Source of the DNA: Patescibacteria group bacterium
GTDB lineage: Bacteria; Patescibacteriota; Minisyncoccia; Phycocordibacterales; XYD1-FULL-46-19
NCBI GenBank assembly: GCA_048617235.1
Contig: JBMCHT010000001.1
Location: 54,043 to 118,042 of the forward strand
Direction of reading: 5' to 3'
DNA length: 64,000 nucleotides
A program made the translations under genes and the position numbers. Under the pieces are notes generated by a model, which saw only the letters and a program-made list of their open reading frames with translations, was not told the DNA's origin and ran no database searches. Below are positions 4,215-55,752 of the stretch, piece by piece; within the stretch, counting starts at the first letter, position 1, and each line of letters starts with the position of its first letter.

Positions 4215-4332
4215 AAAGAACCCCGGCAATATCTAACTACGACACTGCCGGGGAGTAGGTGGTTTCCGGAGAGCGCCGGATAAGAAAAAGGCGCTCAACC
4301 CGGAAACCGAGGGAAGGAAGGTCATTTAATCT
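4215..4332 (-). ncRNA. Candidate ~118-nt small RNA (unclassified), transcribed convergently into the scpA 3' end
   Basis: Minus-strand consensus promoter TTGACA(4362-4367)-N17-TATAAT(4339-4344). GC-rich nested hairpins (GGTTTCCGG...CCGGAAACC). Intrinsic terminator CCCCGGCA-N17-TGCCGGGG plus U-run ending ~4215. 5' region carries CCUUCCUUCCCUC. Confidence 0.45.
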
Positions 4333-4361
4333 GTCGTTATTATATATTTTATCAAATAATA

Positions 4362-4367
4362 TGTCAA
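4362..4367 (-). promoter_or_regulatory. -35 box (TTGACA) of the candidate sRNA promoter; -10 TATAAT at 4339-4344
   Basis: Exact sigma70 consensus hexamers with 17-nt spacer, read on the minus strand. Confidence 0.5.
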
Positions 4368-12879: not shown

Positions 12880-13186
12880 AATGAATTAGAAACAAGAACC
12901 ACTCAGATTAGATTAGACCTGAGTGGTTTTTGTTTGTTTTAATTTATTTGAATGGTTCGCAAAAGATATATTGTGCGAACCACTATTATCTTTATTCTAG
13001 CTATAAAAAACAACCCCCCTATGCATTTTTTAATTAAAATCTAATTTATCAATCAATTAAATTAAAAACTTTTAATAAAATAAAAAACATATTACACCTC
13101 TCCCCATTTAATCTCTTCCTTTCTTTAATATCTTTAATAAACTAATTTTATTGATTTAAATAAAAAATCTATCCACTCCACTCCCC

Positions 13187-13215
13187 TTGCCTAAAATCCA
13201 AATATTAGTCATAAT
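13187..13215 (+). promoter_or_regulatory. Sigma70-like promoter TTGCCT-N17-CATAAT
   Basis: Hexamers at 13187-13192 and 13210-13215 with 17-nt spacer. Drives the GC-rich element that follows. Confidence 0.4.
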
Positions 13216-13216
13216 A

Positions 13217-13500
13217 AAAATGGACTGTGCACCACAACTAAAAGGGAGGGAGGTGATTCTTATCGGCACCCAAACCACCACAAAGATGCCCGTTTTCAAA
13301 ATCTCGGAACACCGAGATGAAAACGGCTTCTTCAGCGTCAAACCGGTAAAGGCAACCCCGGTCGCCCCTACCAAAAACGGCAAAAAAGAGGAACCCGTCA
13401 AGCGGGATCCTCGCAACTAGCCTCACCCCCGGAGAAGCATATGATTATAGTCTCATACGGTGCACCCGAGACAAATCATGTCCTTCTCCGGGGCTTTTTT
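13217..13500 (+). other. GC-rich promoter-to-terminator unit, either a structured RNA or a small-protein mRNA (44-66 aa; ATG 13220, GTG 13253 or ATG 13286, stop 13420). Unclassified.
   Basis: ~55% GC in a ~35% GC background. 'AAAGGGAGGGAGG' purine tract. Long-range pairing GTGCACC/GGTGCAC. Terminal hairpin CCCCGGAGAAG...CTTCTCCGGGG plus T6 at 13427-13500. Confidence 0.35.
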
Positions 13501-23682: not shown

Positions 23683-23744
23683 ATTGTTATAATAACAACA
23701 AACCCCCGATTTTCCAACCGGAGGTTTGTAAATTATTGATATGT

Positions 23745-24284
23745 TTAATCAATAAATTCAAAAGTGGATATAGCTTGATCCCTATCGCTTTTAATCTGAA
23801 TATTTTCTACCTCAGGAGTATAATTATAAGATAATGTAATATATTTGGATCCTATTTTAGTAATAAAATCCGGTTTTCCATCTTGATAAAGTGGGGATTT
23901 TTTAACATCATCTAAATTATCCCAAACTTCTATAGCTGTTCTATAAGCTTGAGCTCCTGAAGGAGAATCTTCTATAAAAAGCACTACAGAGTTTGGCCAA
24001 CCATATTGATCATAAACTTCTTTATAATTAGGAGGGTATTTGATTTCAAAATCATACTCCTCATTTGTATATTCTTTCCAATCTGACAAGATTTCATCTT
24101 CCTCCACTATCATCTCTTCCTGATCTGTTTCTACTTCTTCTAAAGGTTCCTCATTAGCTTTTGGCCAAAAAAACAAACCAATCATCAAAGCTAATAAAAT
24201 AAACAAAACACCAATAACCATCAATAAGATTGATTTATTTTTATTTTTTAAATTAGCACCTTTTTCTGAATTTAATTGATCCAT
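23745..24284 (-). CDS. Hypothetical membrane-anchored/secreted protein
   Basis: N-terminal TM 'ILLMVIGVLFILLALMIGLFFW', acidic ectodomain. No known domain. Confidence 0.4.
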   Translation of the reverse strand: MDQLNSEKGANLKNKNKSILLMVIGVLFILLALMIGLFFWPKANEEPLEEVETDQEEMIVEEDEILSDWKEYTNEEYDFEIKYPPNYKEVYDQYGWPNSVVLFIEDSPSGAQAYRTAIEVWDNLDDVKKSPLYQDGKPDFITKIGSKYITLSYNYTPEVENIQIKSDRDQAISTFEFID

Positions 24285-24432
24285 AATATTGAATTAAAGT
24301 TTTAATAATAATTTAAATTATAACATTTTTAATTTATATTCCTATGTTTTGAATAGAAAATATAAAAATAACACCCCGAGAAAGTTTCGTCTCCCGAGGT
24401 GCTCATCCTCTCCCCCACACCCCTCATATCTC

Positions 24433-24597
24433 TTAATTTTTGTTAAGAGACATAAGGGTACACGTTAATGAAACTCCCGCCATCACCCCCGCCCGCCAGA
24501 AATTGGGCGAGTCTAGGGCAGTGGCATCGAATATGGCTAGCATCAAGCTGATGCCAGCCATAAACGCCCAGCCGGTTTTTGTGAATTTAATACCCAT
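24433..24597 (-). CDS. Small (54 aa) hydrophobic protein encoded in a GC-rich islet. Alternatively a structured RNA.
   Basis: Strong RBS 'GGAATGGAGGAAAAG' 5 nt before ATG (24597). Product MGIKFTKTGWAFMAGISLMLAIFDATALDSPNFWRAGVMAGVSLTCTLMSLNKN. Two downstream hairpins, the second (CACCTCGGGA...TCTCGGGGTG plus TTATTTTT, ~24380-24420) an intrinsic terminator. Confidence 0.4.
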   Translation of the reverse strand: MGIKFTKTGWAFMAGISLMLAIFDATALDSPNFWRAGVMAGVSLTCTLMSLNKN

Positions 24598-24711
24598 CTT
24601 TTCCTCCATTCCTCTGTCTTATAGAGGGGTTAAAGTTTCAAAATCTACCGATAACTATAGCATATATTATTAAAAAAGTAAAGGTATTTTTAAATCAATT
24701 TTATTAAAAAA

Positions 24712-25121
24712 CTAATTTAATTTAGAAACATCACCGTTTAACAAAACAGGATTAAACCCAATTATTTCATCATGCAAAGTTCCTTGTGGAATATCATTAT
24801 ATAAATATATCTTTTTATTAAAACGAAACGCGTCATACATTTCAAGGAATGTTGCTCCGCCAATATAATTTTCAATATTTTCTTTTTAAAATTTAACACA
24901 AGTACAGCATCATTATTTTGTATTATATTTGTACTGTGTTTAATCATTTCACCTTTCCACTTTGCATGACTTTCCATACCTAAATCTCTATATTGATCTT
25001 CCGTCTCGGGATTATCGTAGCAATTAGGCATCGTACACTTATGTCCTAAAGACTTCAACTTTGTTTCAATTTCGGGAATATAATTATAAAACTTTTTACT
25101 GCAAATAATTAATATTTTCAT
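24712..25121 (-). pseudogene. Nucleoside 2-deoxyribosyltransferase-like gene disrupted by a frameshift in an A/T homopolymer run (~24885-24895)
   Basis: N-part 'MKILIICSKKFYNY...NNDAVLVLNFKK'. It continues in the -1/+1 frame as 'NIENYIGGATFLEMYDAFRFNKKIYLYNDIPQ...' with the NDT-like 'GxATxxEhG' motif. The ORF-track C-terminus is low-complexity junk. Confidence 0.5.
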
Positions 25122-25188
25122 ATGGATATTGTATCATATATTTTACAAAGTATTTAAAGTAAGCAGTATTGAAATTATATTTTTTATC

Positions 25189-25515
25189 TTAACTTCTTTT
25201 TTCCTCATCTGTTAAATTCTCCCTTAAAGAATCAATTCTTTGTTCTATTAAATCAAAAGTATTATCTGATCCACCATACATAAAATCTTCTACCGGATCT
25301 GACATCGCCAGAGCCAAATCATAAAGCATATTCAGTAATTGATTATTACTTAATCCTAGATTATCTTGTTCATTTTTAGATTTAGCTGAATAAAAAGCGT
25401 TATAAATTGAAGCGGAATTGACACCCTTTTTAAGGTTTTTCTCCATAATTTTAAGAACAATTTTTTCATTGTCTTCTGGAGTTCTCTTTTTTTCAAAGTT
25501 AAAAAATTTCATCAT
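25189..25515 (-). CDS. Hypothetical protein, possibly leaderless mRNA
   Basis: Extended -10 'TGGTATAAT' ends 6 nt before the ATG. No SD. No known domain. Confidence 0.4.
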   Translation of the reverse strand: MMKFFNFEKKRTPEDNEKIVLKIMEKNLKKGVNSASIYNAFYSAKSKNEQDNLGLSNNQLLNMLYDLALAMSDPVEDFMYGGSDNTFDLIEQRIDSLRENLTDEEKRS

Positions 25516-25745
25516 GTATTTATTATACCAAAAATTAAAAACTTTTTCTTGCTAAAAAAACATACTTCCGGCTTCACAAAGTGACCGCAGGCAAAGCAGT
25601 TTGCCTGCTTTACTTACTTGGTGATGAAATCATGTCCTTTGCTCTAACTTATTTCAAATCGCGAAGTGTACTTCCCCCATTTCATTAGACATCAACCTTC
25701 CTCTATTCTTTTGTAGAAAAATTAAACATATCTCTTTCCCATTCT

Positions 25746-26237
25746 TTATTTGTTTGTGTTTAAGAAAGGCAGGAAAACTTTTATCTCTTTCTTGTACAAA
25801 CTCCAAAATATAAAAATAATAACTATAGCGCCGATCAATGGACCAAAAATAGAAATTAAATTACCAGAATAGCCAAATTCAACTATACCCAACAAAATTG
25901 GGTATATTACCAAAAAGTAAAAAGTAAATAATAGGGCTCTTTTATTCAGTTTTAGAAAGTAGAAGATTGCAATCCCAGAAAGTATCATGAGTATAAAACT
26001 TGTGAGCGAATCAAAAGGAATAATTGTTGACATAACCTTAGATATTTCATCCGTAGTCATTATTGAGTACATATTAATATCCCCAATTACCCATTTTAGG
26101 TTGGTCCAAAATACAAAAACAAAAATTGCAAAGAAAAAATAACCTGCAATTCCAAAAGCCTGCTTGAAACGCACAAAATAGGAAAGCTCGGCAGAGTTTC
26201 CAGATTGTGATGAATTTTTTACTGTGTCATCAATCAT
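25746..26237 (-). CDS. Hypothetical 4-TM membrane protein
   Basis: Hydrophobic helices throughout. Immediately downstream of the XRE-like pseudogene. Confidence 0.4.
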   Translation of the reverse strand: MIDDTVKNSSQSGNSAELSYFVRFKQAFGIAGYFFFAIFVFVFWTNLKWVIGDINMYSIMTTDEISKVMSTIIPFDSLTSFILMILSGIAIFYFLKLNKRALLFTFYFLVIYPILLGIVEFGYSGNLISIFGPLIGAIVIIFIFWSLYKKEIKVFLPFLNTNK

Positions 26238-26241
26238 ATTT

Positions 26242-26470
26242 TATTTAAAAAAGTAATTCACGTCCTTCTCGTACATCTTTGCAAACTTCTGTAACTCGAC
26301 AACATCGACACGCTGTTGTCCTGATTCCACGTTCGAGATATACGACTGTGGACGCTTTAGTTTCTTAGCGACCTAAACTTGCGTCAATCCTGCCTCTTGT
26401 CGAGCTTTTCGCAGTTTTTCAACGAAATAGGCATATTCCTTTCTATGGATTGACTTCTTTATATACTACT
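26242..26470 (-). pseudogene. XRE-family HTH transcriptional regulator with in-frame TAG and no canonical start
   Basis: Minus-strand translation '[65 protein letters not shown]'. Typical Cro/C1 HTH interrupted by TAG. ~45% GC. Confidence 0.5.
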
Positions 26471-26642
26471 ATTTTCTATCGGCAAAGACAATATCCAAAT
26501 TTCCGATATTCTGTCCTCACTGCGAAGGAAATTTCTGAATGTGACCCTTCTCGTGCTGCGACCGTAGTCGGTTAAGGTTTGTAATGTTATTTTCAATAAA
26601 ATCTAGGAATTGGTTTAAGCCTTCTCGAGCAAAACAAATTAT

Positions 26643-26885
26643 TTATTCTTCAATAAGACTAAATCTGTCTACAATCTCACCACCAATTTCTTTTGTACCA
26701 CAAAAATCACTCTTTGCCCTGACCCATATTTGATTGTTTCCAAATTCTGGTGAATCGTATTGAGCTTGATAAACAATAACTTCTTCTGTTGTTTCAGAAT
26801 CACGAGCTATTTCTAAAATAATATATTCTTTACCTTTAAAATGTTTATATCTTTGTCCTTTTTTAATTTCTTTCATAAAATTCAT
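26643..26885 (-). CDS. DUF1653 family protein
   Basis: 'YKHFKGKEYIILEIARDSETTEEVIVYQAQY...QIWVR' matches the DUF1653 pattern. Confidence 0.65.
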   Translation of the reverse strand: MNFMKEIKKGQRYKHFKGKEYIILEIARDSETTEEVIVYQAQYDSPEFGNNQIWVRAKSDFCGTKEIGGEIVDRFSLIEE

Positions 26886-26927
26886 TATATCAAATATACC
26901 TTCTCGAGTGCTCGAACAGCGCTCTAA

Positions 26928-27002
26928 TTGGTGACCCTACGGGGAATTGAACCCCGGTTTCCACCGTGAGAGGGTGGCGTCCTAGCCGCTAGACGATAGG
27001 GC
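26928..27002 (-). tRNA. tRNA-Glu (anticodon CUC), CCA encoded
   Basis: Cloverleaf: acceptor GGCCCTA/TAGGGTC, D-arm GTCT-AGCGGCTA-GGAC, anticodon stem CCACC/GGTGG with loop CTCTCAC, T-arm CGGGG-TTCAATT-CCCCG, then ACCA. Confidence 0.85.
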
Positions 27003-50392: not shown

Positions 50393-50473
50393 GTTATACC
50401 ATTATAAATGGAGAGAAAGTTATAGGAAGACTTTCTCAAGAAGGAAAGAAAAAGGAAGGAAGGAAGGGAAAAT

Positions 50474-50815
50474 ATGTCCGTAGTAGCCTCACACCCGCCG
50501 GCCGTTGAGCCGGCAAACGATCAAGTGGTACTGGAAGTCTCGGACTTCGCCTCGGGAAACCAGGTTGCCCGAAACCTCAAACTGGGCAACCGGTACGGGC
50601 GTCCGATGACTCAAGACGAGGTTCTGGAACAGAGCCTCGACCTCCTACAGGAGGGCGTCGCCATCCTCTGCCCGGGCCCCGGGCAGAAAAACTGCATCAT
50701 GATCTATACCGACGGTCGCGGCAACATTGTGGCCACGATCATTGAAGAGACGACCAGTTTCCCGGCCGGGGACTTCAAGGTCGCCTACATGGTGGCCGTC
50801 CCCAATAATTTCTAA
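50474..50815 (+). CDS. High-GC (~60%) small protein of unknown function. Likely foreign origin or an unusual constraint.
   Basis: 113-codon ORF after a 60-nt polypurine leader ending 'AAGGAAGGAAGGAAGGGAAAAT-ATG'. GC3-rich codon usage unlike neighbours. Followed by a terminator hairpin. Confidence 0.5.
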   Translation: MSVVASHPPAVEPANDQVVLEVSDFASGNQVARNLKLGNRYGRPMTQDEVLEQSLDLLQEGVAILCPGPGQKNCIMIYTDGRGNIVATIIEETTSFPAGDFKVAYMVAVPNNF

Positions 50816-50833
50816 CCCCCCTTCCCACAACCA

Positions 50834-50867
50834 CCCCGCGCCAAACTTGGTGCGGGGTTCTCTTATA
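50834..50867. terminator. Intrinsic terminator shared by the high-GC ORF (+) and uppP (-)
   Basis: CCCCGCGCC-aaacttg-GGTGCGGGG (9 bp with one G.U), followed by TTCTCTT. Confidence 0.5.
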
Positions 50868-55097: not shown

Positions 55098-55103
55098 ACA
55101 TTA

Positions 55104-55322
55104 TAGATGGGAGAAGGTGGCCGATCTAAGGCAAAAACCAACACACAATTCAGTAAAAAAACGCCTTGGTATTAACCACCTTCTCCCCTTCCTTCTGCCT
55201 TTTAAAGATAAAGCGGGGTCGAGACGACCCAAATCCCACAAACAGCTGTGAGGCCTGTTTGATGAAAGATTAGCCGTTCTCGGCTCCGCCCCCAACCCCC
55301 GAATAACTCGGGGGTTTATTTA
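55104..55322 (+). ncRNA. Candidate ~215-nt structured RNA (unclassified), promoter-to-terminator unit with no downstream same-strand gene
   Basis: 12-bp perfect closing helix GGGAGAAGGTGG(55109-55120)/CCACCTTCTCCC(55176-55187). Hairpins GGGTCG-aga-CGACCC and CAAACAG-N9-CTGTTTG. Terminator CCCCCGA-ataac-TCGGGGG plus TTTATTT. Confidence 0.45.
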
Positions 55323-55326
55323 TAAA

Positions 55327-55752
55327 TTATTCTTCAGTTAGTTGAGTTACCGTTCCCACCTGATCAGCCGGAGTTAGACCTAATTCAAATACCACCCACT
55401 GCCAGGCTGAAAGATTATTTAATAAATTTTCCCGAAAATTATTAAAATTTATATTTTGACTTTCTCCTTCCACTAAAATAGTTATTTGAGGATCTTTAAC
55501 TAAAATTAAATCTTTAATACCTGCAAGATCTTCATTATTACCAACCCCTCCTTCTAAATAATCCACCGGATCAACCACTAAATGCCATTCACTTTCAGAT
55601 TCATAAATATCTCGAATAAAAACAGTCTCGTAATCAACAATAGCTTGATTAACTTGATTACCATTCTGCCACCACAGCCAACCAGTTACAGCTAAAATTA
55701 ACAATAAACCACCAACTATATATTTTATTTTAAAATTTTCTCTTTGTCTCAT
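55327..55752 (-). CDS. Hypothetical membrane-anchored protein
   Basis: N-terminal TM 'YIVGGLLLILAVTGWLWW'. No known domain. Confidence 0.4.
   Translation of the reverse strand: MRQRENFKIKYIVGGLLLILAVTGWLWWQNGNQVNQAIVDYETVFIRDIYESESEWHLVVDPVDYLEGGVGNNEDLAGIKDLILVKDPQITILVEGESQNINFNNFRENLLNNLSAWQWVVFELGLTPADQVGTVTQLTEE

Follow-up and report, generated by a model that had tools for sequence, protein, structure and literature searches.

On the minus strand of a 64,000-nucleotide (nt) stretch of contig JBMCHT010000001.1 from an uncultivated Patescibacteria group bacterium (the whole stretch is referred to as the window; GC content 35%), positions 24365-24682 hold a free-standing transcription unit with a credible promoter and a credible terminator. 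Within its predicted transcript of ~283 nt lies an open reading frame (ORF) of 54 codons. The unit is a real, designed feature, and it is best explained, with a probability of about one half, as a structured and probably stable mRNA that encodes an orphan 54-amino-acid (aa) two-helix membrane peptide. The ORF, its Shine-Dalgarno (SD) motif, the spacing between motif and start codon, the hydropathy of the product and its predicted fold make up a combination that is hard to get by chance. The unit is a complete orphan, and one sequence from one sample is all that the finding is based on. The original prediction for this DNA had placed a toxin-like, GC-rich, hydrophobic ORF with a strong ribosome-binding site and tandem hairpins at 24380-24650. 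The features that it described inside this span are real, but the start of the span cuts the terminator and the promoter lies beyond its end.

Extent and folding of the transcript

The promoter was located by promoter scan at 24682..24654 (minus strand, as are all parts of the unit) and comprised TTTACT, a 17-nt spacer and the extended -10 box TGCTATAGT (24662-24654), from which transcription would start near 24647. The exact 9-mer occurred three times in the window, and the other two copies were positioned 7-8 nt 5' of the start codons of the genes at 688 and 58769; it is a host-type extended -10 box, identical to those of these two host genes. At the opposite end, a terminator scan identified an intrinsic terminator (hairpin H5, 24365..24403) with a 14-bp stem and a 6-nt loop (24403..24370), followed by the U tail UUAUUUUU. 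A 50-nt AU-rich 5' untranslated region (UTR; 24598..24647) carries CCCCUCU at 24629-24623, AGAGG at 24615-24611 and the SD motif GGAGG at 24607-24603. It is followed by the ORF (24433..24597), which encodes MGIKFTKTGWAFMAGISLMLAIFDATALDSPNFWRAGVMAGVSLTCTLMSLNKN and a stop codon, accounts for 165 of the ~283 nt of the transcript and runs, as originally described, from an ATG at 24597 to a stop at 24433. An in-frame upstream ATG at 24609 gives a longer form of 58 aa, beginning MEEKMGIK, in the ORF list (24609..24433). The unit is single-copy, with no paralogue within the window.

Folding was pronounced and strand-specific. The minus strand of 24360-24660 reached -116.1 kcal/mol (z = -6.85, 0 of 100 shuffles as good) and the plus strand -80 kcal/mol, and 18 of the 91 predicted pairs in the minus-strand fold were G-U. 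Given these G-U pairs and the energy gap between strands, the functional RNA would be the strand of the ORF, and the feature is not a DNA palindrome. Contiguous stems measured 14, 16 and 14 bp, and a stem of at least 13 bp was found in 0.8% of dinucleotide shuffles. The first of the three, H2 (24532..24562), lies inside the ORF at codons 12-22 and is the palindrome that had been noticed within the coding region: its arms (24532-24545 and 24549-24562; 14 nt, 93% complementary) form 14 contiguous pairs, including one G-U, around a 3-nt loop. A second hairpin inside the ORF, H3 (24478..24525), is a GC-rich imperfect stem (GCCACUGCCCUAGACUCGCCC ... GGCGGGCGGGGGUGAUGGC) present in both the minimum free energy (MFE) and the centroid structures. 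H4 (24421..24458) has 16 contiguous pairs, including two G-U, and a 6-nt loop, and contains the stop codon UAA (24435-24433) in its 3' arm. Together with H5 it accounts for the two downstream hairpins of the original prediction, the second of which had correctly been taken for an intrinsic terminator.

By segment, H2 and H3 together scored z = -5.0, H4 and H5 together z = -7.3, and the first 80 nt, which include the SD and the AUG, folded at shuffle level (z = +0.15). In a coarse scan of the whole 64 kb, two 150-nt minus-strand segments on the unit reached z ~ -4.1 and -4.6 and ranked in the top 2% of 1278, where other intergenic elements were equal or better. The ORF segment was also compared with what its peptide demands, and gave z = -4.05 under synonymous permutation and -2.6 under resampling by class of third-position GC content (GC3), for which host genes gave ~0 to +1. 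The fold of the ORF segment exceeds the requirement of the peptide, and RNA structure has therefore been selected, or is at least built in, regardless of the ORF. Base composition followed the same outline. A GC island of 0.47-0.58 coincides with the promoter-to-terminator unit, with values of 0.36 in the 5'UTR, 0.48 in the ORF and 0.57 in the 3'UTR, and of 0.19 and 0.09 in the flanks. The GC-richness first ascribed to the ORF is thus real, but it tracks the structured transcript and not the ORF.

The 54-aa ORF and its translation signals

The GGAGG motif is separated from the ATG (24597-24595) by the 5-nt spacer AAAAG. SD duplex energies were scored against an assumed canonical anti-SD, and the value for this motif (-9.3 kcal/mol) ranked second among 68 starts. 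The first-ranked site is ~17 nt from its start and mis-spaced, and the earlier claim that this is the strongest ribosome-binding site in the window is essentially right. In the predicted fold CCUCUAU pairs with AUGGAGG, giving the SD an unpaired probability of 0.07-0.18 (MFE and pairing probabilities); this sequestration is a prediction without statistical support, because the 5' 80 nt fold at z = +0.15. The SD and AUG region is the least structured and most AU-rich part of the transcript (GC 0.36), as is expected of a translation-initiation region.

When the transcript was shuffled by dinucleotides, a sense ORF of at least 54 aa starting with ATG arose in 6.6% of cases, and in 1.0% when an SD core upstream was also required. 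Peak hydropathy (Kyte-Doolittle scale, 19-residue window; KD19) was 1.71, a value reached by 1.8% of composition-matched chance ORFs; it belongs to residues 10-28 and is just over the 1.6 convention. From the single sequence, AlphaFold2 returned helices at 5-23 and 31-52 (predicted local distance difference test, pLDDT, 71; predicted template modelling score, pTM, 0.45). The 77-aa ORF on the plus strand (24440-24673), which exists as previously listed, was used as a control and gave no helices (pLDDT 54.5, pTM 0.15). Lysines at both ends and an acidic loop would fit an in-out-in hairpin under the positive-inside rule. The AlphaFold2 hairpin would fit the one or two transmembrane helices proposed at the outset, which are marginal by KD19 (1.71 for the first segment and, by hand calculation, ~1.2 for the second).

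For a membrane-peptide mRNA, the sequence of events would be as follows. RNA polymerase would start at the extended -10 promoter near 24647 and stop at the terminator near 24365, yielding the ~283-nt transcript. In its 50-nt AU-rich leader, GGAGG placed 5 nt before the AUG would recruit the ribosome, unlike in the mostly leaderless and SD-less genes of the host. The 54-aa product would adopt a helix-loop-helix in the membrane with its lysine-bearing termini inside. H2, the stop-spanning H4, the terminator and the GC-rich H3 would act as RNA, most likely stabilising the mRNA and limiting or slowing its translation. A toxin-like or membrane-modulating role of the predicted peptide is possible.

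A series of observations weighs against translation of the ORF into such a peptide. About 60 of the 67 ORFs in the window lack any SD-like motif, and an extended -10 box (TGnTAnnnT) lies 5-9 nt ahead of the start of 12 ORFs, among them the genes at 688, 20278, 49412, 57803 and 58769, an arrangement which suggests that they are probably leaderless mRNAs. GGAGG consequently falls outside the normal gene grammar of the organism, and the argument from the ribosome-binding site is weakened, as most host genes are leaderless and hardly any has an SD. At ~1.2, the second hydrophobic segment falls short of the threshold commonly set for a transmembrane helix, the ORF is rich in methionine (5 of 54 residues), and the chance probabilities given above were computed after the ORF had been singled out for these very features. 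The peak of GC content falls in the 3'UTR rather than the ORF, which is what selection on RNA structure would produce. Codon usage is foreign to the host, with GC3 of 0.58 compared to 0.26 in host genes and GC content at first codon positions below that at second positions, and a host-trained periodicity score gave z = 0.69 for the ORF against a mean of 3.3 for pieces of host genes. The Logan gene caller passed over the ORF, and the frame is missing from the NCBI and Logan protein sets, in which two other proteins of the same metagenome-assembled genome (MAG) are present: p179, encoded by the downstream neighbour (179 aa, ACOCU8_00430 in NCBI), and orf113, a 113-aa protein of equally GC-rich sequence encoded elsewhere in the window. 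No homologue of the ORF was obtained from 5.8 billion clusters by word-indexed search, exhaustive phmmer against 1.84 billion representatives returned repeat-protein noise only, and back-translated ORF scans of metagenome and viral contigs gave no match.

Two of these points lose weight on comparison with the other orphans. The periodicity score of orf113, which was called by PGAP, was also just 0.99, so host-trained periodicity and codon tests cannot separate foreign coding sequence from non-coding sequence. Likewise, the absence of homologues cannot count against coding, because the clearly coding p179 and the PGAP-called orf113 are orphans as well, with no homologue of either found anywhere.

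Accessory locus and searches for relatives

The unit sits in a hypervariable accessory slot beside a tRNA gene, and the predicted peptide is cargo of this slot next to tRNA-Glu. The window belongs to a Paceibacteria/Patescibacteria MAG, and the closest genomes by RmuC were Vogelbacteria and Paceibacterota MAGs (76-77% identity). Across 67 rmuC loci from Genome Taxonomy Database (GTDB) genomes the order rmuC-rplU-recR-dnaB was kept, and synteny stopped exactly upstream of rmuC; p179, the 54-aa ORF and the other islet genes were present in 0 of these 67 homologous loci. The interval between tRNA-Glu(CTC) and rmuC holds 3.2 kb of orphan genes here (23683-26929), and in the closest genome (L001, 367-6000) the same two genes enclose 5.7 kb with a wholly different set of genes. 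Owing to this hypervariability, the loci offered no counterpart with which the unit could be compared.

Two candidate relationships at the locus were rejected. An integrated element with att repeats of tRNA-Glu was discarded as no repeat was found, and GC islands 900-1200 nt upstream of rmuC in relatives were not equivalents of the unit. Across 14 of the loci ARAGORN placed tRNAs only far upstream, in L001 and L066, Rfam (12 loci) gave no other RNA, and the island of L001, the only one inspected, lies within a 208-aa ORF. The neighbour genes of the unit are orphans too (Pfam, NCBIfam, PHROGs and PADLOC). At 24712-25121 on the minus strand, a 119-aa ORF and a 42-aa ORF that overlaps it in a different frame would form a 137-aa protein if a frameshift near the A-run at ~24840 were repaired, and this repaired protein matched no Pfam, PHROG or PADLOC family. 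The description of the surroundings as a decayed accessory islet was accurate as regards an accessory, hypervariable slot; the possible frameshift in the 119-aa ORF is the only sign of decay.

Over all protein searches, no relative of the ORF was found among ~15 billion proteins, and there was no family match in Pfam (0 at E<=0.1), NCBIfam (0 at E<=1), PHROGs or PADLOC. At the nucleotide level, nhmmer and blastn of the unit against the 67 rmuC loci gave no relative, and a single-sequence covariance model run across 777 kb of related loci matched only itself; a covariance-model match in one locus (L022, weak by nhmmer) was rejected as it falls within a P-type ATPase gene. Searches by blastn against phages and plasmids returned AT-rich flank noise only, and DNA-pattern scans gave 0 viral matches and 1 unrelated metagenome match (L070). 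An exact L21 look-up for sister strains recovered the same two contigs only. There is a single sampling of the organism, and the two copies at hand show no difference within the unit: the Logan assembly of SRR11308339 has the same region at 99.98% identity and differs from the NCBI copy at 25494 and 25516, both outside the unit.

Alternative readings and biological meaning

The alternative that survives best is a 283-nt non-coding small RNA (sRNA), acting for example by protein binding or target pairing, with the ORF, the SD-like purine tract and the hydrophobicity as by-products of a G/U-rich, stop-poor structured sequence. It was considered unlikely, though a serious contender. A GC-rich island in an AT-rich genome is a classic structural RNA signature and the basis of composition-based non-coding RNA screens, and here the island is bounded exactly by promoter and terminator (flanks 0.19 and 0.09), with its peak outside the ORF. 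The extreme fold with three stems of 14-16 bp, its excess over the requirement of the peptide, the absence of the ORF from both annotation sources (Logan gene caller and NCBI protein set) and the disuse of SD motifs by host genes all suit an sRNA. So does the 77-aa ORF on the opposite strand, by which open frames are seen to come cheaply here, and at least one further unclassified small RNA candidate with promoter and terminator lies in the window (~4215-4332). Against a purely non-coding transcript, the ORF, its correctly spaced SD and its hydropathy are improbable together (~1% x ~2%), and AlphaFold2 treated the sense and antisense ORFs very differently.

Known RNA families were searched with the covariance models of Rfam 15 at gathering threshold (including tmRNA, RNase P, signal recognition particle RNA, 6S, riboswitches, leaders and small RNAs). 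Within the window tRNA-Glu alone was detected, and none of the 4227 families fell on the unit. At E<=10, positions 24250-24750 gave sub-threshold noise only (score/gathering score: mir-1892, 24.7/86; His_leader, 17/49; LSU_trypano_mito, 13.2/60), and ARAGORN found no tmRNA. The lack of any Rfam family even at this cut-off argues against an sRNA, and also agrees with the original prediction in that the unit is not a known structured RNA. No structural relative was present in the 777 kb of related loci, and the long perfect stems resemble hairpins for stabilisation or processing more closely than they do the irregular helices typical of conserved ribozymes and riboswitches. The unit resembles GC-rich structural RNA islands in its sharp GC island within AT-rich flanks, which extends from promoter to terminator and folds strongly on one strand, and departs from them in matching no Rfam family and in having an SD-led ORF unlikely by chance. 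Dual-function sRNAs (RNAIII/hld, SgrS/SgrT, SR1/SR1P) share with it a structured transcript of a few hundred nt with its own promoter and terminator and a short ORF alongside stable hairpins beyond coding needs. The unit has no homology to them, and in these RNAs the ORF takes up a smaller share of the transcript. A CsrA-type GGA sponge was rejected (7 GGA motifs against ~6 expected from composition, hand estimate), as was an enrichment of purine-rich motifs: GGAAGGAAGG with <=1 mismatch was at chance level and RGGARGGRRR was mildly enriched (11 against 5.8).

It is improbable that the unit is the toxin half of a type I toxin-antitoxin system, in which a long-lived structured mRNA would encode a membrane-damaging peptide and both SD sequestration and an antisense or trans-acting RNA would repress translation. 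Type I toxin mRNAs (hok/Sok, fst/RNAII, tisB/IstR-1, aapA1/IsoA1, txpA/RatA, bsrG/SR4) and the unit have in common an ORF of <60 aa for a hydrophobic helical peptide, a separate, highly structured and probably stable mRNA of 200-400 nt, and an SD able to pair with an upstream CU-rich tract, here CCUCU, with which the SD is predicted to be mostly paired. Both occur in accessory, strain-variable DNA without homologues beyond a narrow lineage, and type I toxins are typically lineage-restricted orphans. The unit differs from them in having no toxin-family membership, with no match to Hok/Gef, Fst, Ldr, TisB, Ibs, TxpA/BsrG or other small-toxin families in Pfam, NCBIfam, PHROGs or PADLOC, and no detectable antisense or adjacent antitoxin gene. 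Its predicted peptide is a two-helix hairpin of marginal hydrophobicity, whereas one helix, strongly hydrophobic and followed by a charged tail, is usual, its 5' fold is no better than chance, it is single-copy in the window, and a full-text literature search gave no type I system in bacteria of the Candidate Phyla Radiation (CPR).

An antisense promoter for an sRNA antitoxin, which had been proposed as something to look for, was not found. The plus strand has no host-type extended -10 box in 23892-25210, that is, no host-type promoter within ~500 nt, and it showed only one weak 9/12 promoter-like site and no terminator; missing plus-strand signals do not prove a missing antisense transcript. 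The unit may work like a type I toxin-antitoxin system, but it was not filed as one, because the toxin family, the antisense promoter and terminator, the 5' fold and the hydrophobicity either fail or are marginal. The original interpretation is thus supported in part.

A candidate small RNA of ~120 nt was observed at 4215-4367 (minus strand), with a 12/12 sigma-70 promoter (TTGACA-17-TATAAT, 4367..4339) and a terminator (4253..4221). Its transcript (~4215-4332) folds at -55 kcal/mol (z = -6.8) and matches no Rfam family, and CCUUCCUUCCCUC, a single-stranded tract at its 5' end, shows complementarity to the purine-rich leaders of the GC-rich orphan units. Pairing of this CU-rich RNA with the initiation region of the 54-aa ORF (-15.8 kcal/mol) would favour a type I arrangement, but it does not stand out (top 3.6% of windows), and the RNA pairs far more strongly with other targets, namely orf113 (-21.6 kcal/mol, top 0.28% of windows) and the region at 13243 (-23.3 kcal/mol). 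The candidate was therefore rejected as an antitoxin for the 54-aa ORF.

Further GC-rich units were seen in the same DNA. At 50440-50860 (plus strand), orf113 (50474-50815; PGAP hypothetical protein ACOCU8_00585; GC 0.59, GC3 0.75) lies within an island of 66% GC, with GGAAGGAAGGAAGGG on its 5' side and, by eye, a terminator-like hairpin on its 3' side. The folding of its first half exceeds what the peptide demands (z ~ -3.5 to -3.9). At 12990-13500 (plus strand), ~250 nt of ORF-free AT/C-rich sequence precede a GC-rich unit with GGGAGGGAGG, a hydrophilic 44-aa ORF (13286-13420, no Pfam match) and a long hairpin with a U-run that is terminator-like by eye. At 55100-55330 (minus strand), a GC-rich intergenic region holds several hairpins, including a long stem of GGGGAGAAGGUGG with CCACCUUCUCCC, and folds strongly in the window scan. 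Of greater interest is the genome-wide setting, in which a few GC-rich orphan units with an SD occur in a genome that is otherwise leaderless and SD-less, together with a candidate CU-rich small RNA whose sequence is complementary to the leaders of these units. It would be a long shot for the unit at 24365-24682 to be the first type I toxin-like or otherwise RNA-gated membrane-peptide module described in CPR/Patescibacteria, or to belong to a small set of GC-rich, SD-led orphans (24365-24682, 13243-13500 and 50440-50860) controlled in trans by the CU-rich anti-SD candidate at ~4215-4332.

Very unlikely, finally, are a cis-acting leader (an attenuator with a leader peptide) that governs read-through into p179, and a piece of foreign GC-rich DNA that persists as an inert remnant. 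On the same strand, p179 begins 80 nt past the terminator; the architecture weakly recalls that of the His leader, at a sub-threshold 17 bits (gathering score 49); and two copies of the 8-mer GAAACUUU, one at the 5' end and one in the loop of the terminator, could each pair with GGAGUUUC. However, one 8-nt repeat is within chance expectation for 420 nt, and this repeat is the sole candidate for alternative pairing. Past the terminator, p179 has an extended -10 box of its own (TGTTATAAT, 24325-24317), no match was obtained to a riboswitch, T-box or leader family, and a 54-aa leader peptide without regulatory codon runs would be atypical; a role as leader of p179 is unlikely. The foreign-like composition would suit a relic, but a promoter of host consensus, three perfect hairpins whose G-U pairs are strand-specific and a terminator would not be expected to persist in inert DNA.

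The present value of the unit, known from one sequence in one sample, is that of a candidate for experiment and not of a discovery. Small hydrophobic ORFs and small RNAs are a common kind of feature in accessory DNA. Should the unit act as RNA, it would be an unclassified structured small RNA from CPR bacteria. If the 54-aa peptide is made, an SD-led, leadered gene would be seen to work in a genome in which translation otherwise begins with neither an SD nor a leader, and an orphan membrane-active small protein would be added to the accessory pool of an episymbiotic, genome-reduced lineage, in which small proteins and RNA regulators are, to our knowledge, almost uncharted.

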